Source: Escherichia phage vB_EcoM_ESCO9. From it: a stretch of DNA of 64,000 nt. The translations under genes and the position numbers were made by a program. A model generated the notes under the pieces. It was given only the letters and a program-made list of their open reading frames with translations. It ran no database searches and was not told the DNA's origin. The stretch lies in sequence record OM386654.1; one strand, given 5' to 3'. This document shows, piece after piece, positions 417 to 19,484 of this stretch (its first letter is position 1; each line of letters starts with the position of its first letter).

Positions 417-2189
417 GTGTCTTATGTTGTAAATAAATATGGGTATAACATTGATCTAAGTCAAGAAGGACATACTGGGTGTCCTCGTTGTATGAAAGGA
501 GGGCGTGATCGATCACAAAACAATTTGATGGTATATGGCTTAGATGCCGATGAAGACCATCGAGGCGCACATTGTTTTTCTTGTGGCTTTACTATCCCTG
601 ATCAAAAATGGTTAAATGCACACGGCGAAGAAATTGAAGAGGAGGATATCTTGGGTAGTGAGTTTAATCCAGAAGTACATGATAAACTAAAAGCCAGCAC
701 TGGAACTAATCCAAAAGGTTATCGCGGTATTCGTGAAGATATCTCTAAGCCTTTCGGTGTACGTTATATGTACGATGAAGCTACTGGCGAAGTAATTTCA
801 ACACTATACCCTACAACTAAAGATTACAATATTGCTGGGTATAAACAACGTATCGATCCAAAAGATTTCTCACATCCTATCGGTGAAACAGGAAAGGATT
901 GTGATCTTTTTGGGGAGTTTAAATATCGTAACCACAGCGGTACTATTCTAATCGTTGGTGGTGAACACGATATGCTGGCTGCAACACAGATGCTAAAAGA
1001 TTATAACAAGGGTGGTAAATATCCTGTTCCTGCTGTAGTATCTGGTACTTGTGGCGAAACATCTCTGCATAAGCAGCTTCAACATCGTTATAAATTCTTA
1101 GATCAATTTAAAAAGATTGTTCTATGTATGGATAATGATGAAGCTGGACGTGCAGCAGTTGAGAAATGTGTTAAAATCTTACCACGTAATAAAGTTTACG
1201 TGATGGAACTAACGGATGTTAAAGATCCTAACCAGGCACTAGTAGAAGGAAAAATTGATCATTTTATTGATCGCTTTTTCAAAGCTAAACTGTACACACC
1301 TGCTGGTGTTTACGCTTCTAACGTACTATATGAAGCAGCCTTGGAATGCCTGGAAGCTAAAATGATCACCCTTCCTCCATTCATGCGTGTTGCTTCGAAT
1401 ATGTTAGGTGGAGGCTTGGTAGAAGAAGAAATTACTGTTATACTTGCAAAAACAAGTATCGGTAAGACACTGTTGGTTAACGAGATTACGAAACACATTA
1501 TTCTTGCACACCCAGAACATACTCTTGGTATTTTATCTTTGGAGGCAACGTATAAGAAGTATTCTCGTAACTTACTGTCTTCATTCTTGCATATCCCTCT
1601 TCACCGTAAAACGAAAGAAGAGAAGGAAAAGATTTTAAAAGATAATGAAGAAAAGATTCGTGATTTTTACGAACGAGAAGATGGAACACCACGTTTCTAT
1701 GTTTGTGATGATCGTGGAGCTAACGTAGATGTGATTAAAGAGAAGGTTCTGGAAATGATTATTTATTTCGGAGTAACCATTCTTGTTATCGACCCTTATT
1801 CTGACTTGCTTTCTGGTATGGACGTGTCACAACAAGAGGAACTTGCGACGTGGCTGAAACGCATTATGAAAGAGTATGCAATAACCATTGTTGTAATTTC
1901 ACACGTTAAAAAGTCTTCTAACAATAGTAATGAACATATTGTAGAAGATGATGCAATGGGTAGTAGCTTCCTTGCTAAAGGTGCTGGTATCACAATTGCG
2001 CTGGAGCGTGATAAACAAGCTGAAGATCCTATGGAACGTAACCGCACATATTGCTACATTCTAAAGAACCGTGAGTTCTCAGAGACTGGTGCAGCAGGTA
2101 GTTTCTTCTATGAGATTAAAACAGCTACACTTCACGATTACGATCAATACACAAGTAACCCAGAGAATATTCCTGATGGTTCTTATTAA
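417..2189 (+). CDS. DNA primase/helicase (zinc ribbon + Toprim primase fused to DnaB-like P-loop helicase)
   Basis: GTG start after GGAGAA; CPRC...CFSC zinc ribbon; Toprim-like ILIVGGEHDM...CMDNDEAG; Walker A AKTSIGKT; Walker B-like VIDPYSD. Confidence 0.85.
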   Translation: MSYVVNKYGYNIDLSQEGHTGCPRCMKGGRDRSQNNLMVYGLDADEDHRGAHCFSCGFTIPDQKWLNAHGEEIEEEDILGSEFNPEVHDKLKASTGTNPKGYRGIREDISKPFGVRYMYDEATGEVISTLYPTTKDYNIAGYKQRIDPKDFSHPIGETGKDCDLFGEFKYRNHSGTILIVGGEHDMLAATQMLKDYNKGGKYPVPAVVSGTCGETSLHKQLQHRYKFLDQFKKIVLCMDNDEAGRAAVEKCVKILPRNKVYVMELTDVKDPNQALVEGKIDHFIDRFFKAKLYTPAGVYASNVLYEAALECLEAKMITLPPFMRVASNMLGGGLVEEEITVILAKTSIGKTLLVNEITKHIILAHPEHTLGILSLEATYKKYSRNLLSSFLHIPLHRKTKEEKEKILKDNEEKIRDFYEREDGTPRFYVCDDRGANVDVIKEKVLEMIIYFGVTILVIDPYSDLLSGMDVSQQEELATWLKRIMKEYAITIVVISHVKKSSNNSNEHIVEDDAMGSSFLAKGAGITIALERDKQAEDPMERNRTYCYILKNREFSETGAAGSFFYEIKTATLHDYDQYTSNPENIPDGSY

Positions 2190-2199
2190 GGAGAGAAAT

Positions 2200-2595
2200 A
2201 TGAAAGACAACGAAAATATCCTTTATGGGGTATCCCCTTCTGCGTTAGGGTATGATTATACGAAAACTGTTGCTAAGTTTAAATTTCAAGATGGATCGGA
2301 GTTAGAACCATACGGTTATGCTTATGGTGAACATTTGTGGTTTGAGGATGGTTGCCTATACCTTCTCATTCAAACTACCAGTGGTTTTGTGGGAGAGCTT
2401 GTAGATCGTATGCTGAAAAATGTTAGTGATAAAGTTGTTCTTGATATCGCTAGTAAGGATGAAAACATTAATAACATTGTTTCCACTTTTAATGGTTTGA
2501 CAGGCACTGTTAAAATTGAACGTGTAGGCTTGAGAAATACCAATGGTGTCCCTAATTGCCTTATTAAAGTACAACTAAGTGCTGACAATAAATAA
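2200..2595 (+). CDS. hypothetical protein (131 aa)
   Basis: ATG at 2200 preceded by GGAGAG; the track's longer ORF from 2071 would overlap the helicase gene. Confidence 0.5.
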   Translation: MKDNENILYGVSPSALGYDYTKTVAKFKFQDGSELEPYGYAYGEHLWFEDGCLYLLIQTTSGFVGELVDRMLKNVSDKVVLDIASKDENINNIVSTFNGLTGTVKIERVGLRNTNGVPNCLIKVQLSADNK

Positions 2596-2685
2596 CAAGA
2601 AGGGGCGAAAGCCCCTTTACAAAACAATTAATTTGTGGTACAGTATTAACAAATTAAGACTTTAGAAATATTTTAAGGAGGGAGA

Positions 2686-5265
2686 ATGGGAGCTTTTACT
2701 TTCGACATTGAAAGTAACAACTTGCTTAATGACGAAAGTGTAGATTACTTGGCAAGTCCATATCGTTTAAAAGATAGTTTTGCAATGCACTGTATTGTGT
2801 GCGAAAGTCATGATACTGGAGAGATTATTGCTTTCCATGATGGTGATAAATATCTTTTCGATGGTCGTCCGTATATTGAGACTGACGGAAAGTATGAATA
2901 CCGACTGGAGGAATATGAGCATTTAGAATATACCCATTTCCCTCTTAAAGATTTTCCTGATTTTGTAAATGGAACAGGTAAATTTAAAGGTAATTCAAAC
3001 TATAAAATTACCAAAGTAGTTGGACATAACATCATTAACTTTGACTTACTGGCAATTAAATTATTTTTTAAACTCAACTACAGTATTAAGTACAATACTT
3101 GGGGTAATAGTAACATTGAAATTTGTGATACTATGATCTTAAGTAAGACACTAAACCCTGATCGCTTCGGTGGTCATAGTCTGGCAGAGTTATCTAAGAA
3201 AGCTGGAGGGGATGTTAAAATTGATTTTAGAAAAAACATCCCTGAAACTGAAAGATTTAAAACATTTGCAGCAGATATGCTGTATTACTGTATTTACGAT
3301 AACAAAGCTAACACCGCAGTGTTCCGTTATTTGATGGAAGAGTGGGGTGATTATAATAAGTGGTCTGAACCATTTAACTTAGAACAACGTGTAGCTGATA
3401 TTATTACACGTCAAGAGCACCGTGGCTTTGCTTTCAATATGAAGCAAGCAGAAGATAATATTCGTGATCTGGATGCTCGAATGGAAGCATGTCGTTTAGA
3501 GGCAGAACCTGTGCTACCTCCTAAACCTGCTACTAAAGGTTATTTGAAATCATTCATTCCACCTAAACTACAGTTTAAAAAGAATGGTGAACCTTCAAGT
3601 AACATGATAAAGTTTGCAGAGAAACATTCTGGTGAACTTGTACAAAAAGAAGATGGTTGGTGGTTATTTGCATTAGGTAAAGAGTTTAAACTGCCTATTC
3701 CAGCAGAAGAACCTATTTGTGATCCTACAGTACCTGCTACTTTAGACGACACTACACATATTAAAAATTGGTTAGTTGGTTTAGGTTGGAGTCCATCTGA
3801 ATATAAAGATAAAGATATCACTCTTAAATCTGGCACTAAGATTAAGAAAGATGAAGCACAAATGGAGAAAGCTATTCGTGACTATGTTGATCAAACATTA
3901 GCATCTAACTTCTGCCAGGATAGATGTGATCATCTGGAGTGCACACCAGAAACTTTGGAATGGAAACTAAGAGATCGTATTGCTAAAGCTAAAGGTCGTG
4001 GTGTTAAGGTGCTTACTAACCCTTCCTTTACAAAAGGGCAAGAGAAGGATATTTGTCCTAACTTGGAAGCACTAGGTGAAAAGTTTCCTTATGCTACGCA
4101 GATTGTGCAGTATCTTACGTATAAACATCGTAGAAACTCTATTCTAGGCGGTGGTGCTGATTGGGAAGAGGATGAAGAGGATTACGATAAAGGTTATCTG
4201 GCGGCAGTAAGGGCTGATGGTCGTATACCGACTCCTGCTGCAACGTGTGATGCAGCTACGTCTCGTATGAAACATAGGTTAGTAGCAAATATCCCACGTG
4301 TAACATCTCTGTACGGATATGAAATGCGTAACTTATTTGGTGTAGAAGTTCCAAAATACTTCCAAATTGGTTATGACTTTGATTCTCTTGAGGCAAAAAT
4401 AGAATCACACTACTGTTGGCGGTACGAGCAGGAACCACATGAATATTGTAATGCTCTATTATTGGAAAAACCTAATGATGTTCATACAATGATGGCTCGA
4501 CGTATTTCTGACACTATTGGTCGTAAGTTTGAACGAAGCCCTGCTAAATCTGTTAAGTATGGTATTACTTATGGTGCTCAAGCTGCAAAAGTAGCAAAAA
4601 CTATAGGTAGTGATATGTATACAGGACAGCTTGTATACGATGCTTTCTGGGAAGCTGCAAAACCTCTTGCGCTTCTTAAAGAACGTCTGCATGATTTTTG
4701 GGTTAAAACAGGTAAGAAATACATTCTTGGTATTGATGGTAGGAAAGTACCTACACGATCTGCACACGCAATACTTAACTCTCTGTTCCAGAGTGGTGGT
4801 GTTATTTGTGCAAAAAGAGCAATGGTTATCTACGACGATCTTATCGAAGAAGAAGGATTAGCTGTTGACTTTTTTGTTGATGACTGGAAAAATAAGTCAT
4901 TCGTTCAACAAATGATTGCATATCACGATGAAGCACAGCTTGAAGTAACTCGTGATCTGGTGCATTTTAAATGGTTCTCTAAAGAATCTTTAGGTTGGAC
5001 TCAAGTTGATGATCCAGAAGAACAAAAGAAAATTGATAAAGAATGTTTGGATAAGGTTAATGCCTGGAAAGAAGAGGAAGAGAAACGTACTGGCAAGATT
5101 TGGGCTAACGTACATGAATCTCCGAAAGGTGGTTGGTTTACAGCCTACAGTCGTGCTGGAGAATTAGCATCTATCGCTGTTAATAAAGCTGGTGAGTATT
5201 ACAATCTTAATGTACCTCTCACTGCTGGTTACGATGTTGGTAGTTCATGGTCAACTTGTCACTGA
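2686..5265 (+). CDS. DNA polymerase, family A (Pol I-like) with 3'-5' exonuclease domain
   Basis: 859 aa; exo motif VGHNIINFDL; motif B-like KSVKYGITYGAQ; motif C AYHDEAQLEV; RBS AAGGAGGGAG. Confidence 0.9.
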   Translation: MGAFTFDIESNNLLNDESVDYLASPYRLKDSFAMHCIVCESHDTGEIIAFHDGDKYLFDGRPYIETDGKYEYRLEEYEHLEYTHFPLKDFPDFVNGTGKFKGNSNYKITKVVGHNIINFDLLAIKLFFKLNYSIKYNTWGNSNIEICDTMILSKTLNPDRFGGHSLAELSKKAGGDVKIDFRKNIPETERFKTFAADMLYYCIYDNKANTAVFRYLMEEWGDYNKWSEPFNLEQRVADIITRQEHRGFAFNMKQAEDNIRDLDARMEACRLEAEPVLPPKPATKGYLKSFIPPKLQFKKNGEPSSNMIKFAEKHSGELVQKEDGWWLFALGKEFKLPIPAEEPICDPTVPATLDDTTHIKNWLVGLGWSPSEYKDKDITLKSGTKIKKDEAQMEKAIRDYVDQTLASNFCQDRCDHLECTPETLEWKLRDRIAKAKGRGVKVLTNPSFTKGQEKDICPNLEALGEKFPYATQIVQYLTYKHRRNSILGGGADWEEDEEDYDKGYLAAVRADGRIPTPAATCDAATSRMKHRLVANIPRVTSLYGYEMRNLFGVEVPKYFQIGYDFDSLEAKIESHYCWRYEQEPHEYCNALLLEKPNDVHTMMARRISDTIGRKFERSPAKSVKYGITYGAQAAKVAKTIGSDMYTGQLVYDAFWEAAKPLALLKERLHDFWVKTGKKYILGIDGRKVPTRSAHAILNSLFQSGGVICAKRAMVIYDDLIEEEGLAVDFFVDDWKNKSFVQQMIAYHDEAQLEVTRDLVHFKWFSKESLGWTQVDDPEEQKKIDKECLDKVNAWKEEEEKRTGKIWANVHESPKGGWFTAYSRAGELASIAVNKAGEYYNLNVPLTAGYDVGSSWSTCH

Positions 5266-5292
5266 CATCTCTTTGATTTTAAAGGAGTTTTT

Positions 5293-5889
5293 ATGCTTAC
5301 CGTATATGGTGAAGGTATTAATGATTTGGAAGGCGAGAGTACGCTACCTGGTAGTAAGAAACTAACGCCGCATTATATGAAATGGATGGCTATGTTGGGG
5401 AGGTGTTACTCCCCTTGTCAACAAGAACGTGATCCTTGTTATAATGGGGTGACGGTTTGTGAAGAATGGAAACTGTTCTCCAATTTCTACTCTTGGTTGC
5501 AAACTTGGGATAACTGGGAAAACTTAGAACTTGATAAAGATATTATAGGAGGGAGAGTTTACTCTCCCGATACCTGTCTTTTAGTAACAGGAGATCTTAA
5601 CAAGTTCTTAGCTTATAGAGTAAGTAAAAGATCTCATGGGACTATGGTAGGATGTAGTTACGAAAAAGATCGTAAAAAGTATAAAGCCCATATTCAACGT
5701 GATGGACGTGTTATAACACTGGGACGTTTTAATACTGAAATTGAAGCGCATCTTTGTTGGTTGAAGGCTAAGGCAGAACAGCTTACAAAATTCTTTGAAA
5801 CTGAAGATGAAAGAGTTGTTCCACATCTTAAAGCACTATATAATGAAATGCTTGAGCATGTAGAACAACACAAAGAGTGGACACGATAG
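5293..5889 (+). CDS. AP2-domain DNA-binding protein, possible homing-endonuclease-like gene
   Basis: C-terminal YKAHIQRDGRVITLGRFNTEIEAHLCW resembles the AP2 DNA-binding domain found in phage homing endonucleases; no catalytic motif identified by eye. Confidence 0.4.
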   Translation: MLTVYGEGINDLEGESTLPGSKKLTPHYMKWMAMLGRCYSPCQQERDPCYNGVTVCEEWKLFSNFYSWLQTWDNWENLELDKDIIGGRVYSPDTCLLVTGDLNKFLAYRVSKRSHGTMVGCSYEKDRKKYKAHIQRDGRVITLGRFNTEIEAHLCWLKAKAEQLTKFFETEDERVVPHLKALYNEMLEHVEQHKEWTR

Positions 5890-5897
5890 GAGAAAAT

Positions 5898-6491
5898 ATG
5901 AATATTGAAGATCAAAAAGTACGAGCTTTAGAAGTATTACGTATGTGCCAACTGGTAGATCCGTTTGCAATTGTAGCTGGCGGCGCTGTACGTGACTGGC
6001 GATTAGAGAAACCTGCGCAAGATATTGACATTTACTTGCGTATGCCTAACCACAATACACTCGTGCTAGTAGAGAAGTTTTTGATGTTGGGTGTTGGTGC
6101 ACGTAATGTTAAACAACTTACTAAGCAAACAGAACACACTTATGCCGAACTACCACATTTGAAATGGGTATTTGAAGCATACTATAAAGACCTTAAGTTT
6201 AACTTTATGATCATGGAAGAAGGTGTACGCAGTGAAATCGTATGGAACTTTGATGTAGCTATTTGCCTGTGTTACTGGGATGGTCAAAATTATGTATATC
6301 ATCCAGATTTTGAATTTGCACTGAAAACTAATATTTGTACTATTAATCACCGCTACACAGGTAAAGAAGCACACGTCCGTAAAATGGCAGAACGTTTCCC
6401 TATGTTCCGCTTTGTAAAAGACGTTTTCATTCCCAAAGAACCAGAAGTACGTACACTGGATTCATTTAACAACGAAGAATTTAAGATTTAA
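5898..6491 (+). CDS. hypothetical protein
   Basis: ATG at 5898 preceded by AGGAG; track start at 5877 has no RBS and overlaps the upstream gene. Confidence 0.5.
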   Translation: MNIEDQKVRALEVLRMCQLVDPFAIVAGGAVRDWRLEKPAQDIDIYLRMPNHNTLVLVEKFLMLGVGARNVKQLTKQTEHTYAELPHLKWVFEAYYKDLKFNFMIMEEGVRSEIVWNFDVAICLCYWDGQNYVYHPDFEFALKTNICTINHRYTGKEAHVRKMAERFPMFRFVKDVFIPKEPEVRTLDSFNNEEFKI

Positions 6492-6494
6492 GTG

Positions 6495-6524
6495 TTGACA
6501 AACATTATAATTATGTGTTATTAT
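6495..6524 (+). promoter_or_regulatory. sigma70-like promoter (-35 TTGACA, -10 TATTAT)
   Basis: TTGACA at 6495-6500, 18-nt spacer, TATTAT at 6519-6524 preceded by TGTG; 10 nt upstream of the ATG at 6535. Confidence 0.4.
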
Positions 6525-6534
6525 TAGGACTTGA

Positions 6535-6933
6535 ATGACAGATAATCGTTCTAAAATCTTAGTCGAGACGTTCTACAGTAGAGAAACTAATCGTCTTGAG
6601 CTAACTAAAAAAGATGTTGAACCTCAAGATAATACCTTTTTTATTCAAATACTATGTCTCTTTGGTGGATACAATCGTTTAACAGTGAGAGTAGAAAACA
6701 AAGAGATATCTGAAACCACTATCACAAAACGTGAACTAATGCTACTACAGGATACAATACGAGATGTTTTGGATAATCCTGGAAAAGCAAAAGTAATTAA
6801 CCTTGGTGGAGAAAAGATACAAATCCTCCATTTCGAAAGTGGTGAAATAGGATTTGGTATTGGTCTTGGTAAATACCTGTTGGAAGAAACTGACGCTACT
6901 CTTTTACGAGAGTTTTGTGTTAAAGTAATGTAA
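6535..6933 (+). CDS. hypothetical protein (132 aa)
   Basis: ORF track; promoter-like element immediately upstream. Confidence 0.5.
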   Translation: MTDNRSKILVETFYSRETNRLELTKKDVEPQDNTFFIQILCLFGGYNRLTVRVENKEISETTITKRELMLLQDTIRDVLDNPGKAKVINLGGEKIQILHFESGEIGFGIGLGKYLLEETDATLLREFCVKVM

Positions 6934-6949
6934 TTATAGAGGAGAATTT

Positions 6950-7897
6950 ATGCCAGTAATTAATTCTGAAATCGATCGTCGTACTAAAAAAGAAGCATTC
7001 TGGGCTGAAGGTATCGTTGAATATGTCAAACTAGATAAGTTTGATGAAATGAAAGTCTCTTATATTAAGGTTGCAGGTCAGCCAGATAAGAAAATTGAAT
7101 CAACTCACAAAGCATCCCTGCTTATTAAAGAGAAAGGTGCTGGTGCTGATGATAAAGGTGTTTGGGTTAGCCTAGGTGAAGTTAAACTGCACCCAGAACA
7201 TGAAAACCTGCAAGTTAAAGATGGTGATAAGTGGATTACTATCGAAAAAGGTGTAGAAGTAACTATGGATGTTAAACCTTCCGAATGGAATGGCAAAACA
7301 TACTACAACTCCTCTAAAGGTAAAATCACTGTTCTTTCAACAGAAGGTGTTCAGCAAGCACAATCTTCTTCAAAAGGTGGAAATAAGCCATCTAATAACG
7401 AAGGTAGCAAGCCTAACTACAAAAAACGTGATACCGTAGGGATTGAAACAGGACACGCTGTAAACGGCGCTCTGGAGCTTCTACGTGCTGGTGTGAAAGG
7501 TGATGCTTTCGACTTGGCTGGTGTGGTACAATCTGCAACTGTTAATCTGAAAGCAGAAATTGCTAAAGATCGTGGCGTTGATGTGACTGACTATGATCTT
7601 GGTGCTTCAGTTGGACACGCAATTCTTAACGCTTGTCGTGATCATACAGGTAAAACTGTAACGGCAGAAGAGATTATTGAAGCTGCTCGTGAAGTTCTTG
7701 CTTTGTCTGATAAAGTAGCTGCTGCTATCCGTGGAATGTCTACCCCAGTACAAGAAGTTAAGAAAGAAACTAAAAAAGTAGAGAAAAAAGAGCCAGCACC
7801 GAAAGAACCAGAACCTGTTGTTCAAGATTTCGATGATGATATCCCATTTGCTCCTATTGGTTTGCAGTATGGTCGAAATTTCCTGCACTGTTTCTAA
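6950..7897 (+). CDS. single-stranded DNA-binding protein-like
   Basis: Contains DFDDDIPF, identical to the acidic C-terminal tip of bacterial SSB, followed by 15 extra residues; Gly/Ser/Asn-rich linker; high-expression-like codon usage; RBS AGGAG. Confidence 0.5.
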   Translation: MPVINSEIDRRTKKEAFWAEGIVEYVKLDKFDEMKVSYIKVAGQPDKKIESTHKASLLIKEKGAGADDKGVWVSLGEVKLHPEHENLQVKDGDKWITIEKGVEVTMDVKPSEWNGKTYYNSSKGKITVLSTEGVQQAQSSSKGGNKPSNNEGSKPNYKKRDTVGIETGHAVNGALELLRAGVKGDAFDLAGVVQSATVNLKAEIAKDRGVDVTDYDLGASVGHAILNACRDHTGKTVTAEEIIEAAREVLALSDKVAAAIRGMSTPVQEVKKETKKVEKKEPAPKEPEPVVQDFDDDIPFAPIGLQYGRNFLHCF

Positions 7898-7919
7898 TAG
7901 TTAAATATTGTGTGAATAT

Positions 7920-7945
7920 AAGGAGCCTAACGGCTCCTTTTCTTT
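7920..7945 (+). terminator. rho-independent terminator (GGAGCC-TAAC-GGCTCC + T-run)
   Basis: Perfect 6-bp stem with tetraloop at 7922-7937 followed by TTTTCTTT. Confidence 0.5.
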
Positions 7946-7957
7946 GAAGGAGATATA

Positions 7958-8689
7958 ATGAGCGAATTTGTAAACAACACCGCATTAAACTACCTGCAAA
8001 CCCTCGAAAGCAATAGTGTAGATTTGATTCTTACTGACCCACCATATGCTATTTCTCGTGACACAAATTTTCAGTCTGGAGAGCCTACTGGAAAAGATAC
8101 GGATAGATTCCGTGTATCTTACAACTTCGGTGATTGGGATGTTGTAGATATTCCTTACTTTAAAGAAGTATTCAAAGAAGCCTACAGGGTGCTTAGAAAA
8201 GGTGGTACTTGCATAGTTTGGTATGATATCTGGAAGATCCAGGAACTACGTGAAATCCTTGAACCGCTTGGTTTTCGTATGTTCCGTACCATCGAATGGA
8301 TTAAAACAAACCCTGTACCCATCAACAGTGGTGTTAACTACCTTAGTAACGCTAAAGAGATGGCTATTGTTTGTGTTAAAGGTTCGAAACCAACCTTCAA
8401 TGCTTCCTACCATAAGGGTGTGTTTGAGTATCCTATCTATCAAGGAGCAGATCGTTTTCATCCAACACAAAAACACTTGACTTTGTTTTGTGACCTTATT
8501 AATATACACACCAACGAAGGAGATGTAGTCTTAGACTTCTTCTCTGGAAGTGCAACAACACAAGTTGCGGCACTTTTAACAGGTAGAGAATACTTAGGCT
8601 GTGAAGCCGATGTAAATATTTTTAAGCAAGCGGAGGAACGACTAAATGAGTACACTGAACAGCAAAATCACCCTGAAAGCACTGATTAA
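7958..8689 (+). CDS. DNA methyltransferase (amino-MTase, N6-adenine or N4-cytosine)
   Basis: Motif IV LILTDPPYA (DPPY) precedes motif I VVLDFFSGSATT (FxGxG), the beta-class order. Confidence 0.8.
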   Translation: MSEFVNNTALNYLQTLESNSVDLILTDPPYAISRDTNFQSGEPTGKDTDRFRVSYNFGDWDVVDIPYFKEVFKEAYRVLRKGGTCIVWYDIWKIQELREILEPLGFRMFRTIEWIKTNPVPINSGVNYLSNAKEMAIVCVKGSKPTFNASYHKGVFEYPIYQGADRFHPTQKHLTLFCDLINIHTNEGDVVLDFFSGSATTQVAALLTGREYLGCEADVNIFKQAEERLNEYTEQQNHPESTD

Positions 8690-16367: not shown

Positions 16368-17351
16368 TTACGAAACGTTGGTTACTGTTATCCAGCTACC
16401 ATTAATATAATATTGTAGCGGGGCTGACCAATACCAAGCACCACGAAGTTCTTTCTTGTCACCAAAACCCCAACCTGTGATCACGTGACCAGCATAGAAA
16501 CGAGACTCAGACACACCAGCTTGGATACGTGTTCCAAGACGGATAGCAGACACAACAGAAGAAACTCTATTGTTAATGCTATTAATTTGGCCTTGCAAGT
16601 TACTATTAACGTTGTTAATATTATTTTGCAGTGTGCTTTGCAATGAGTTTAGTCTGGAGTTAAGATAATCTAATCTTACAAGAGCATTACCATTACCAGT
16701 ATCTTGACCAGAATTAGAGCGAGGGTTGTCTATTAAAACATAACCTGCATCATATAAACGGACTGCACAAGATGTTCCTCCAGTCGATGGGTTCATTCTA
16801 TAAATATAGAGTTGACCACCTGCACCTGGTTCAGAGGACATATTACCTACTGTTTGTCCGTTGTAGTTTCTAAAAAATAATGTTGCAGGATCTGTAGCAC
16901 CTGTACCACAAGTGTAAATATCACCTGCATAGATAGCACCACCATTATCACGCTTAACAAGAACATTCCCTACAACTTGGTTTGATGTTGCGTCTGTAAT
17001 GTTAGCTGATAAGTGATTATGGCTGTTATCTACGACTTGAATAGATAATGTTACAGCAGCATTACCATTCCATGTAACTTCACCTGTAGCATCACCTGCC
17101 ATTGTAATTTTAGTACCGACTATAGGAAGATATGTAGTAGGCAATGTTGGGAAGAATTCATCTTGCATATAGCGAATCCAAGACCCAATATTGTTTAAGA
17201 TCCAGTTCATTTCTTCACAAGTCATAATCTGACCAAAGTCCATACCAACATTACGGATGGTTTCTTTTGGTCTAATCTTGTTTGTGTTTCCCGTTCCTGG
17301 GAGGGTTACTGTTTGTGTCGCCCAGTCAGGGTAGTATTGTGGCTTTGCCAT
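16368..17351 (-). CDS. putative tail fibre/baseplate protein
   Basis: 327 aa; N/S/Q-rich heptad-like repeats (NINNVNSNLQGQINSINNRVSS). Confidence 0.4.
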   Translation of the reverse strand: MAKPQYYPDWATQTVTLPGTGNTNKIRPKETIRNVGMDFGQIMTCEEMNWILNNIGSWIRYMQDEFFPTLPTTYLPIVGTKITMAGDATGEVTWNGNAAVTLSIQVVDNSHNHLSANITDATSNQVVGNVLVKRDNGGAIYAGDIYTCGTGATDPATLFFRNYNGQTVGNMSSEPGAGGQLYIYRMNPSTGGTSCAVRLYDAGYVLIDNPRSNSGQDTGNGNALVRLDYLNSRLNSLQSTLQNNINNVNSNLQGQINSINNRVSSVVSAIRLGTRIQAGVSESRFYAGHVITGWGFGDKKELRGAWYWSAPLQYYINGSWITVTNVS

Positions 17352-17364
17352 TAAGAGTAACTCC

Positions 17365-17994
17365 TTATTCTATTTGAGCTATCAGCATAGTCATTCGCCC
17401 TGTATCATCTCCTTCAGCCTCTGTGTAAAGAGAACCTAAACCACCTATACCATGAGGTGGAGTTGTGGCATAATAGGAAGTGAAACCAAAGGCTGCACCA
17501 GCTTTCGCACCTAAGCGATAACTACTTAGGATCGGGAAAACGTTAAGTAACTGTGCTACTGCCTGATCGGATTGTAGACACAAATTATAAAAGAATACGT
17601 CGAATGTTTTATTTAATCCAACGTATGTATTGATCGTTTCTTTTTCTGTTCCTGTAAAACGAGCGAACATATCAATGATATCATCTCGCGTACCAGAAGA
17701 CGCAACACGATAAGCCCTGATTTTTAATATTGTACGATACTCTTCATCTGTAGCACCATTTCTTTCCATCCCCATCTCTTCACCAATAAGATCTAAATAC
17801 TTACCAGTTGCAGTAGAGATTAAGCGGTGTTTGGCAAGATAGATCATTGCCTGATCTATCTTTTGTTTTTCGCTAGAAATGATATAGAGTAGTTTGACAA
17901 TGTTCGGAGAAGATTTAAAATCTTCAATCAGTAGGTCTTTAACATCTTCATTGATACTATCCCACGTTGTCACATGGTCAACACTCACTGCCAT
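17365..17994 (-). CDS. putative baseplate protein
   Basis: ORF track; position only. Confidence 0.4.
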   Translation of the reverse strand: MAVSVDHVTTWDSINEDVKDLLIEDFKSSPNIVKLLYIISSEKQKIDQAMIYLAKHRLISTATGKYLDLIGEEMGMERNGATDEEYRTILKIRAYRVASSGTRDDIIDMFARFTGTEKETINTYVGLNKTFDVFFYNLCLQSDQAVAQLLNVFPILSSYRLGAKAGAAFGFTSYYATTPPHGIGGLGSLYTEAEGDDTGRMTMLIAQIE

Positions 17995-17996
17995 TT

Positions 17997-19484
17997 TTAG
18001 ACTCCGTACTCGTAGGAAATATTATCAAGGTCAAAGGATGGTACAACATTGTACGCTGGAGTGATATCTCCCTCATTATATTTACTGTCATCCTCAGTAT
18101 TAAGTTTAACATAAACACGGAGAGAAGTCAAGCGTCCGAACGCAAGTGCAGAATAAATTACACCTTTTATCTGATCGTTAGTTACTGTTGACCCTAGCTC
18201 AAAATAAGCCTGTAAGTTTGCAAGAGCAGAAACAATATTTTCCCTTTCTGTTGTACTTAGCACACTACCATTGCCAGTTTGATACACCAGTTTAAGTGAA
18301 TATTCAGCATTGTCACCAGGAGAAAAACGAATTACTTCTTGACCGCCATCTTCTGTTACGATAGTAATTGCTGTTGTACCATAGGTTAAGGTGTTAATAG
18401 GCTTAGTATTATAAATAACCTGTGCAACTTCTTCTGCTGTACCACCATACACAATAGTCTGGAATGTCATAGCTGGAGCATGTTCCTGATCATGTAATGT
18501 AGGGTTATCATAAATCTTAACCTTTGTCACACCATCTGTCAGTAGCAGGGCTTTAACAATAGCAGCACGAGTAGCAGCATTAGCTTCATCCATATTATCA
18601 TTGAAACGAGAACGGAATTCTGCATCTGTTTCAACATCTGTACCTGGAGAGAATGGATAGAAGTTACCTGTATCTAAAAAGCCTGTAAACGTTGAAGAAA
18701 TACCTGTGATACTTTCTGTACCTACTGGATTATAACCAACGTCTGAACACGTAACTGGAATTTCACTCCATTTTGTACCAATTGCAATAGATGCGTAAAA
18801 TTTCACTGGTGTTACTAGACCTATTGGGTTAACATTATCTTCTGGATTATAACCCATATAAACATTACTAGCATCATTCCATACTAAAGCACGATCTGTT
18901 GTTGATACGTTAGCTTTAATGAAATTCGTGAGATCTAAAATAAAGTTTGTATTGCTAGGACTTAATGTTTTACTGTTAAGACCACCATCAATAGCACTTT
19001 GAATGTAGAAAGTAATAGAAGTTTCACCAGAAGCTGTTGCGTTTGCTTTAGAAATGGTGTATGCTCCAATCTTAGCATTCAACATTGTTGGTGCACTGAC
19101 ATAATATGTCAAATCGTTATCGGCATTAAAATAAACATCTGTGCTTAGTTCATAAGTCCAAGCTGCCTTATTGTTAGATTTAACATAAGCATAACCACTA
19201 CCAGCAGAAGCAGCTTTACGATAAAAACCTCTTTTAGAGAAGATTTCATCAAGGTAAATACCTTCTGCACCATCTAAGGTTTGGGTATTGTAAACACCTT
19301 GCATACCTTCCCAAAGGGTGTAATCTGTATATGCAATAATACGAAACAGTTGACCAAAGACAGTATCTTCAGATGTAGCTGTATCTGCACCGAAAGTGTT
19401 TTTCAATGCTGTCATATAATTATTTAAAATATCATCAAACGTTGGAATTACAAAACCAGCATCTGTTAAACCATAATCTGCCAT
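17997..19484 (-). CDS. putative baseplate wedge protein
   Basis: 495 aa; position only. Confidence 0.4.
   Translation of the reverse strand: MADYGLTDAGFVIPTFDDILNNYMTALKNTFGADTATSEDTVFGQLFRIIAYTDYTLWEGMQGVYNTQTLDGAEGIYLDEIFSKRGFYRKAASAGSGYAYVKSNNKAAWTYELSTDVYFNADNDLTYYVSAPTMLNAKIGAYTISKANATASGETSITFYIQSAIDGGLNSKTLSPSNTNFILDLTNFIKANVSTTDRALVWNDASNVYMGYNPEDNVNPIGLVTPVKFYASIAIGTKWSEIPVTCSDVGYNPVGTESITGISSTFTGFLDTGNFYPFSPGTDVETDAEFRSRFNDNMDEANAATRAAIVKALLLTDGVTKVKIYDNPTLHDQEHAPAMTFQTIVYGGTAEEVAQVIYNTKPINTLTYGTTAITIVTEDGGQEVIRFSPGDNAEYSLKLVYQTGNGSVLSTTERENIVSALANLQAYFELGSTVTNDQIKGVIYSALAFGRLTSLRVYVKLNTEDDSKYNEGDITPAYNVVPSFDLDNISYEYGV

Follow-up and report, generated by a model that had tools for sequence, protein, structure and literature searches.

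The 64,000-nucleotide stretch of Escherichia phage vB_EcoM_ESCO9 (OM386654.1) analysed here, which we will call the window, is by its sequence that of a phi92-like phage (Justusliebigvirus): between positions 6500 and 8700 it shares 99.9% identity with Escherichia phage muut and about 99% with phi92 and some 50 further Justusliebigvirus genomes. The gene of interest encodes an SSB-like protein and is the second of a two-gene unit, which has a promoter-like site upstream and is closed by an intrinsic-terminator-like hairpin. Genes for a primase/helicase and a family-A DNA polymerase lie upstream and a methyltransferase gene downstream (Table 1). In L071 and L072 an ORF of 132–133 aa is called at the place of the first gene of the unit, before the SSB-like gene, which is a match of position only. 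Between the polymerase and nucleotidyltransferase genes there is a 198-aa ORF (5293-5889) with no Pfam match; at the matching position phage nieznany has an ORF annotated as HNH endonuclease. The nucleotidyltransferase ORF itself (5877-6491) belongs to phrog_1614; its homologues in L071 and L072 have precomputed Pfam matches to Gad2, an anti-Gabija family (weak in L071), and a direct Pfam scan of the window ORF gave no match at E < 0.001. Several database records (MG065639, MG065645, MG065656, MG065689 and others) are named 'Campylobacter phage', with Campylobacter jejuni as the host, and are, where compared, about 99% identical to phi92-like or rV5-like phages of E. coli; they probably carry wrong host labels or represent phages from contaminating E. 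coli.

Table 1. Features of the window around the SSB-like gene, and endonuclease genes beside SSB-tip genes at other loci.
Sequence	Feature	Position	Strand	Remarks
Window	TOPRIM+DnaB_C primase/helicase	417..2189		upstream of SSB-like gene
Window	Family-A DNA polymerase	2686..5265		upstream of SSB-like gene
Window	Promoter-like site TTGACA-18-TATTAT	6495..6524	+	11/12 consensus match only; TG before second hexamer
Window	132-aa ORF, function unassigned	6535..6933	+	phrog_16560; upstream of SSB-like gene
Window	SSB-like protein gene, 315 aa	6950..7897	+	phrog_4477; Phi92_gp156 / Bas52_0087 family
Window	N-terminal all-beta domain, OB-fold-like, aa 1-135	6950..7354	+	AlphaFold2, Foldseek
Window	Four-helix bundle, aa 163-260	7436..7729	+	AlphaFold2 model
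Window	Disordered Lys/Pro/Glu-rich linker, aa 261-292	7730..7825	+	pLDDT about 50-60, no secondary structure
Window	SSB-type acidic tip DFDDDIPF, internal, residues 293-300	7826-7849	+	
Window	15-residue extension APIGLQYGRNFLHCF, residues 301-315	7850-7894	+	core APIGLQY + 8-residue hydrophobic end
Window	Tip + extension as a single C-terminal peptide, PPMDFDDDIPFAPIGLQYGRNFLHCF			
Window	Stop codon TAA	7895-7897	+	in-frame TAG directly after
Window	11-codon stub ORF MVEISCTVSNS*	7869..7904	+	+2 frame; at endonuclease start site of nieznany and others
Window	Intrinsic-terminator-like hairpin (7920-7939) + T-run	7920..7949	+	closes two-gene unit
Window	N6/N4 DNA methyltransferase	7958..8689		downstream of SSB-like gene
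L001	Zinc-finger endonuclease gene beside SSB-tip gene	3405-3899		
L002	Zinc-finger endonuclease gene beside SSB-tip gene	3600-4223		
L069	Zinc-finger endonuclease gene beside SSB-tip gene	2694-3119		
L072	Zinc-finger endonuclease gene beside SSB-tip gene	3944-4372		
L074	Zinc-finger endonuclease gene beside SSB-tip gene	1544-2167		
L075	Zinc-finger endonuclease gene beside SSB-tip gene	2292-2870		

AlphaFold2, run on the full protein with a 77-sequence alignment, produced a confident all-beta domain (aa 1-130) and a four-helix bundle, followed by a tail which is disordered from about residue 261 (pLDDT ~50). When modelled alone, the beta domain reached a pLDDT of 93.7 and a pTM of 0.84, and its Foldseek matches in the PDB were mostly OB-fold ssDNA binders, including lactococcal phage p2 SSB, RPA32, STN1, MCM N-terminal domains and Rim1, with TM-scores of 0.26–0.47 and a best E of 0.096 (none < 0.09). 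An OB fold is a plausible assignment for the modelled domain. The protein belongs to phrog_4477, the family of the Bas52_0087-type SSB-like proteins of Vequintavirinae and Stephanstirmvirinae, by profile match (E = 2.7e-101) as well as by its gene neighbourhood and the succession of beta domain, four-helix bundle and tip-bearing disordered tail. Bas52_0087 of phage RudolfGeigy is a homologue (BLASTP E = 2e-15, with beta domain and four-helix bundle both aligned), and its escape position D252 aligns with D161 of the window protein, part of the near-invariant D161/G164/H169 region of the bundle. Links to bacterial SSBs are confined to the tail. A Pfam scan of the 315-aa protein found no family, PF00436 included, at E up to 1, the profile of the N-terminal domain aligned by hhalign to canonical phage SSB OB domains with a probability of 0.2%, and the family profile matches E. 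coli SSB (PDB 1eqq/4mz9) only across ...EPPMDFDDDIPF. As far as sequence comparison goes, the window protein is outside the bacterial SSB family and the tail alone is common to both. The label 'SSB-like', as used in the original prediction, fits the confident beta domain with its mostly OB-fold matches, the disordered tail and the homology to Bas52_0087, but has no backing in any match to PF00436 or to the canonical OB profiles.

The same prediction had singled out an internal DFDDDIPF followed by 15 extra residues, and this is what the ORF encodes: ...DFDDDIPF, then the extension, then TAA, with the octapeptide equal to the last eight residues of E. coli SSB in the profile match. The feature proper occupies 7826-7897; position 7730, from which it had been counted, is merely where the linker starts. 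A canonical SSB tip ends in a Phe with a free carboxylate, and in the window protein this Phe is internal.

It had also been proposed that the true stop codon was lost. With this, or with read-through or an assembly error, the real protein would end at DIPF. A whole-protein search, not conditioned on the motif, gave 98 phrog_4477 homologues, 76 of which do end exactly at [ILV]PF, as this explanation would have it; one has a single extra Ser after PF and 21 are extended by 14–17 residues. Nevertheless, a lost stop can practically be dismissed. The same 315-aa product is encoded, with 98-99.7% identity, in about 54 independently sequenced phi92-like genomes, all of which keep the extension, so that neither chance nor sequencing error can account for it, and the few DNA differences within the extension among phi92-like genomes (the window, L020 and L041) are synonymous. 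At the place of the stop stands GCT, which would need three changes to become TAA or TGA, and no single indel separates this genome from the orthologues that end at DIPF. Moreover, the 15 residues are homologous to extensions of unrelated proteins and under purifying selection, which identifies them as a conserved, selected module. A frameshift or an alternative stop that would give a DIPF-ended isoform was rejected, as the sequence shows neither a slippery site nor a stop close by in another frame.

The extended homologues share a clear pattern. Twenty of the 21 have G, L and Y at positions 4, 5 and 7 without exception, and among these 20 an A opens the extension in 19 and a P comes second in 18. 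Overall identity of the extended proteins to the window protein falls to as low as 30–40%. We define the module as A-P-[IVLF]-G-L-[QPM]-Y followed by 7–8 (rarely up to 10) mostly hydrophobic terminal residues, placed directly behind an SSB-type acidic tip DD[IT]PF. In the window the core APIGLQY comes directly after PF and is followed by GRNFLHCF and TAA. The GRNFLHCF end is found also in nieznany and ECO340P2, and closely similar ends occur in Salmonella, Cronobacter and Vibrio phages. Overall, the ends fall into two length classes, GLQY with 8 residues (GRNFLHCF, GKSRIYAL, AKHAIYVI) and GLQY with 7 (PALLMCM, PALLNCI). In every case the protein ends 7–10 residues after GLQY, which is consistent with a C-terminal anchor.

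The module extends well beyond phrog_4477. The back-translated pattern DDIPFAPxGLQY was found in 36 viral contigs, nearly all of them with ordinary PF00436-type SSBs of 160–250 aa, and among canonical PF00436 SSBs the module stands behind DD[IT]PF in proteins from Vibrio and enterobacterial phages, prophages and plasmids; lambdoid and P22-like phages have the variant APVTLPFPRHAIHAI. With the 20 residues of tip and extension as a tblastn query, 230 of 50,697 phage records matched, at 242 places. A 26-aa query of tip and extension matched 722 plasmid records, most at the tip only, and 103 of them with at least 80% query coverage; the full-length plasmid carriers are mostly 40–100 kb among the matches listed. 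A role as a translocation signal for SSB of conjugative plasmids is unsupported, since 540 of the 722 matching plasmids (most of them tip-only) are predicted to be non-mobilizable, the others being conjugative (135) or mobilizable (47). In a set of bacteria with one genome per species, a shorter pattern picked up the SSB C-termini of Sodalis, Providencia, Vibrio, Pseudoalteromonas, Oceanisphaera and Glaciecola. All true matches in this set are gammaproteobacterial except for one MAG labelled Parasphingorhabdus, and the other matches were by chance, in unrelated ORFs. A tail-only profile search of a 5.8-billion-protein collection returned short SSB fragments only, apparently due to length bias, and no further carrier families; a literature search on the motif, phage SSB tails and defence found no description of the extension. 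We also noted that at marine or Vibrio-type extension loci (L016, L021, L023, L037, L059) the SSB gene is flanked by a ~380-aa ORF, the N-terminus of which we take to resemble RdgC, and that at L011, L013, L019, L025 and L034 an MT-A70-like methyltransferase ORF starts 10 nt past the SSB stop.

A third carrier family is the T7-gp4-like primase/helicase (DnaB_C) of Klebsiella Mydovirus phages, which ends ...GPDDDTPF-APIGLQYAKHAIYVI; the window's own primase/helicase has no tip-plus-extension tail. In KpS11 (L078) the primase/helicase (386-2449) and the SSB-like protein (16804-18021) both carry tip and extension, with different terminal octapeptides, AKHAIYVI and GRNFIHCI, respectively, and in K54_rec6 the extension is found on the primase/helicase only. 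The DNA polymerase of KpS11 (2578-5934) is annotated as two CDSs with an HNH endonuclease ORF between them, and this gene looks like it has been split by a homing endonuclease. The presence of the extension varies between close relatives, so it is dispensable: it is found in Bas54, CM1 and rV5 and absent from Bas51, Bas52 and Bas58. One near-isogenic pair was aligned at the DNA level, the primase/helicases of K54_rec2 and VLCpiM5a (L070), which are 99.9% identical and whose DNA homology stops exactly at the Phe codon. At this point K54_rec2 continues with the 48-nt extension and a stop, VLCpiM5a with a stop and then a 155-aa ORF (5029-5496, phrog_8569), and homology picks up again at a 56-nt hairpin segment. 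In L071 a TGA directly behind the Phe codon marks the same boundary. On this sequence comparison, the exact break in one near-isogenic pair shows that the module is gained or lost by recombination at the tip-coding sequence.

What is preserved is the peptide rather than the DNA. The window and nieznany encode an identical extension and differ at 7 of its 45 nt, all 7 changes being synonymous and none non-synonymous in the SSB frame; alleles encoding identical APIGLQYPALLNCM differ at about 12 synonymous sites, and across alleles synonymous sites are saturated (pS about 0.8). The pN of the APxGLQY core is 0.03–0.06, a value which is not independent evidence, as the alleles were picked by a pattern that fixes the core. 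The terminal 7–8 residues, on which the selection of alleles was not conditioned, have a pN of ~0.4 and a pN/pS of ~0.5 with saturated synonymous sites, so they appear moderately constrained. In the AlphaFold2 model the extension has a pLDDT of ~50, no secondary structure and no sign of a folded or docked conformation. The extension is thus shown to be a disordered short linear motif under purifying selection on the peptide.

How did such a peptide come to be attached to different genes? Free-standing homing endonuclease genes are known to adjoin conserved phage replication genes, as does T4 segG beside gene 32. Directly 3' of SSB-type genes we find endonuclease genes with an N-terminal zinc finger, belonging to phrog_2340 (HNH) and phrog_1035 ('endonuclease VII'). 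At loci with the extension these genes begin within it, the start lying at -29 nt in nieznany, CM1/Bas54 and L040, -14 nt in L072 and -11 nt in L031. Extension-free alleles with an endonuclease neighbour (K54_rec6, Bas51, Bas58) have a different zinc-finger N-terminus, and the endonucleases of Bas54 and Bas51 are nearly identical save for this N-terminal segment. This suggests, on sequence grounds, separate endonuclease lineages specialised for each allele type, and the tip-coding DNA looks like a homing site common to unrelated genes. Co-conversion may then carry the extension from one gene to another where both contain the EPPMDFDDDIPF-coding sequence. The association is observed, and from it we infer that the endonuclease lineage probably helps the extension to spread. 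The window locus has no endonuclease gene, only the stub ORF, followed by the terminator and the methyltransferase gene. The stub matches the first codons of nieznany endonuclease gp213 (MVETSCIASK...) and could be the remnant of a lost endonuclease gene or a by-product of the conserved overlapping peptide.

One could go further and regard the extension as a mere footprint: DNA brought in or left by a free-standing endonuclease that targets the conserved tip-coding sequence, serving to protect the allele against cleavage, with a peptide product that itself does nothing. Endonuclease genes do begin in or just past the extension in L001, L002, L031, L040, L072 and L074, an HNH gene lies 56 nt downstream in K54_rec2, the type of zinc-finger N-terminus co-varies with the presence of the extension, and the window retains the 11-codon stub of such a gene. 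Selection speaks otherwise, since the changes between window and nieznany inside the overlap are synonymous in the SSB frame but non-synonymous in the nieznany endonuclease frame. Furthermore, an endonuclease gene is missing from the neighbourhood of most carriers, among them the window, GAP31, KpS11 and all alleles of the GLQY-P class, and the same endonuclease families sit behind the extension-free alleles L069, L075 and L076. We therefore consider a footprint quite improbable. The extension as an obligatory part of an endonuclease cassette was rejected on the last two of these grounds. With most carriers lacking the gene, endonucleases would account for the mobility of the extension and not for its conservation.

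We consider it fairly probable that the extension is a conserved, transferable C-terminal docking module placed behind an SSB-type tip. By analogy with SSB-Ct, the tip itself presumably serves as a protein-recruitment peptide. Canonical clients of the SSB tip need the free carboxylate of the terminal Phe, as published SSB-Ct complexes indicate. The extension removes this carboxylate and would weaken such contacts. At the same time it would supply a further docking peptide, anchored through a hydrophobic C-terminus of its own, and so re-address the tail of its carrier, be it an SSB, an SSB-like protein or a primase/helicase, to a particular partner. Of the options in the original prediction, a tip that is masked or used differently lies in the direction favoured by the evidence, to which the comparisons add that this transferable motif is widespread. 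The partner is more likely to be a host protein, one conserved among Gammaproteobacteria, than a phage protein, because the module occurs both in large virulent phages with a family-A polymerase and in small temperate-phage recombination modules (Erf, SSB, exonuclease, Abc2), and because the extension is the sole difference between near-isogenic phages. Among specific candidates, docking to Erf was rejected, as Erf is near only 8 of 52 extension-bearing loci (searched with the L043/L044 Erf proteins as seed), and so was any single co-occurring neighbour, as clusters of flanking ORFs (for instance the RdgC-like and MT-A70-like methylase genes) are lineage-specific only. To our knowledge, none of the clamp-binding, ClpX-adaptor, ssrA or FtsZ-tail peptides fits both length classes.

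Alternatively, the extension might be self-contained, with no specific new partner, acting either as a cap that hides the tip from host tip-binding proteins or tip-linked immunity such as ExoI-dependent DRT10, or as a degron, a non-polar C-terminal degradation signal limiting the level of the carrier. Non-polar C-terminal ends can be degradation signals, and almost every variant finishes with five non-polar residues. Presence or absence of the extension among nearly identical phages would also suit an arms-race or dosage trait. The free-tipped homologue Bas52_0087 also speaks for this alternative. Its authors call it SSB-like and describe OB-fold domains, a four-helix bundle and a disordered tail with C-tip; it is the reported trigger of DRT10, is required for efficient activation of this defence and has its tip linked to ExoI by the authors (bioRxiv 10.64898/2026.04.29.721553). 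On the other hand, a generic hydrophobic end needs no strictly conserved A-P-x-G-L-x-Y core, and the acidic tip is intact in all carriers. Simple evasion of DRT10 by the extension is also weakly disfavoured, since DRT10 is reported, at the subfamily level, to restrict Stephanstirmvirinae as well as Vequintavirinae (bioRxiv 10.64898/2026.04.29.721553). Overall, we regard a cap or degron as unlikely.

The docking module that we prefer can be embedded in a broader picture, which we offer tentatively as a possibility. The extension may represent a second C-terminal 'address code', parallel to the SSB tip, for proteins of the phage replisome and of recombination: a portable peptide used by phages of Gammaproteobacteria on SSBs, SSB-like proteins and primase/helicases. 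It would capture one host hub protein, or else divert the tail from the SSB interactome or from tip-linked immune sensing, and would spread between unrelated genes by recombination at the tip sequence with dedicated homing endonucleases.

Bacterial SSB is generally held to recruit over a dozen genome-maintenance proteins through one universal handle, the free Phe at the C-terminus of its tip. In about 230 sequenced phages, and in many prophages and plasmids, the identical tip is internal with a conserved peptide behind it, and the same add-on is found on three unrelated replication proteins. If it redirects or blocks tip contacts, it would be a natural switch with which to tell the SSB interactions that phages need from those that they must avoid, and this includes the connection proposed between SSB-like phage proteins, exonuclease I and immunity by DRT10. 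The natural near-identical pairs, Bas54 versus Bas51/52/58 and K54_rec2 versus VLCpiM5a, make this question testable.

Several known systems resemble parts of this arrangement. The closest in the tail is E. coli SSB-Ct (...MDFDDDIPF-COOH), with an octapeptide identical to the window tip and likewise at the end of a disordered linker; however, the E. coli tip finishes with a free terminal Phe, whereas in the window protein this Phe is followed by 15 conserved residues, and the bodies of the two proteins (PF00436 in E. coli SSB) are unrelated in sequence. In T7, gp2.5 and gp4 both have acidic C-terminal tails ending in Phe. The window similarly has a TOPRIM+DnaB_C primase/helicase and a family-A polymerase beside the SSB-like gene, and the T7 logic of two proteins with one docking tail reappears in Mydovirus, where the SSB-like protein and the primase/helicase share a tail type. 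The T7 tails stop at the aromatic residue, while the extended tails described here continue with a conserved hydrophobic peptide. T4 segG beside gene 32 is matched by the zinc-finger/HNH endonuclease genes 3' of SSB-type genes, which often overlap the last codons, but the segG-type arrangement has an endonuclease gene and the window has the stub only. A precedent for a phage SSB C-terminus tuned to its partner is HK620 SSB, which requires its C-terminal hexapeptide, NDYPPF, for stimulation of the cognate annealase, Sak4 (PMC5928155). Several extension carriers are similarly found in Erf-SSB modules, although the HK620 tail has a different sequence with a free terminal Phe and the extension occurs also at loci without Erf. 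Finally, Bas52_0087 belongs to the same family, phrog_4477, as the window protein and has a comparable gene neighbourhood and a matching architecture. It differs in having 408 aa and ending at a free ...SFDDDIPF, while the 315-aa window protein has the tip internal; the DRT10 preprint deals with the free-tip form only and makes no mention of extended variants (bioRxiv 10.64898/2026.04.29.721553).
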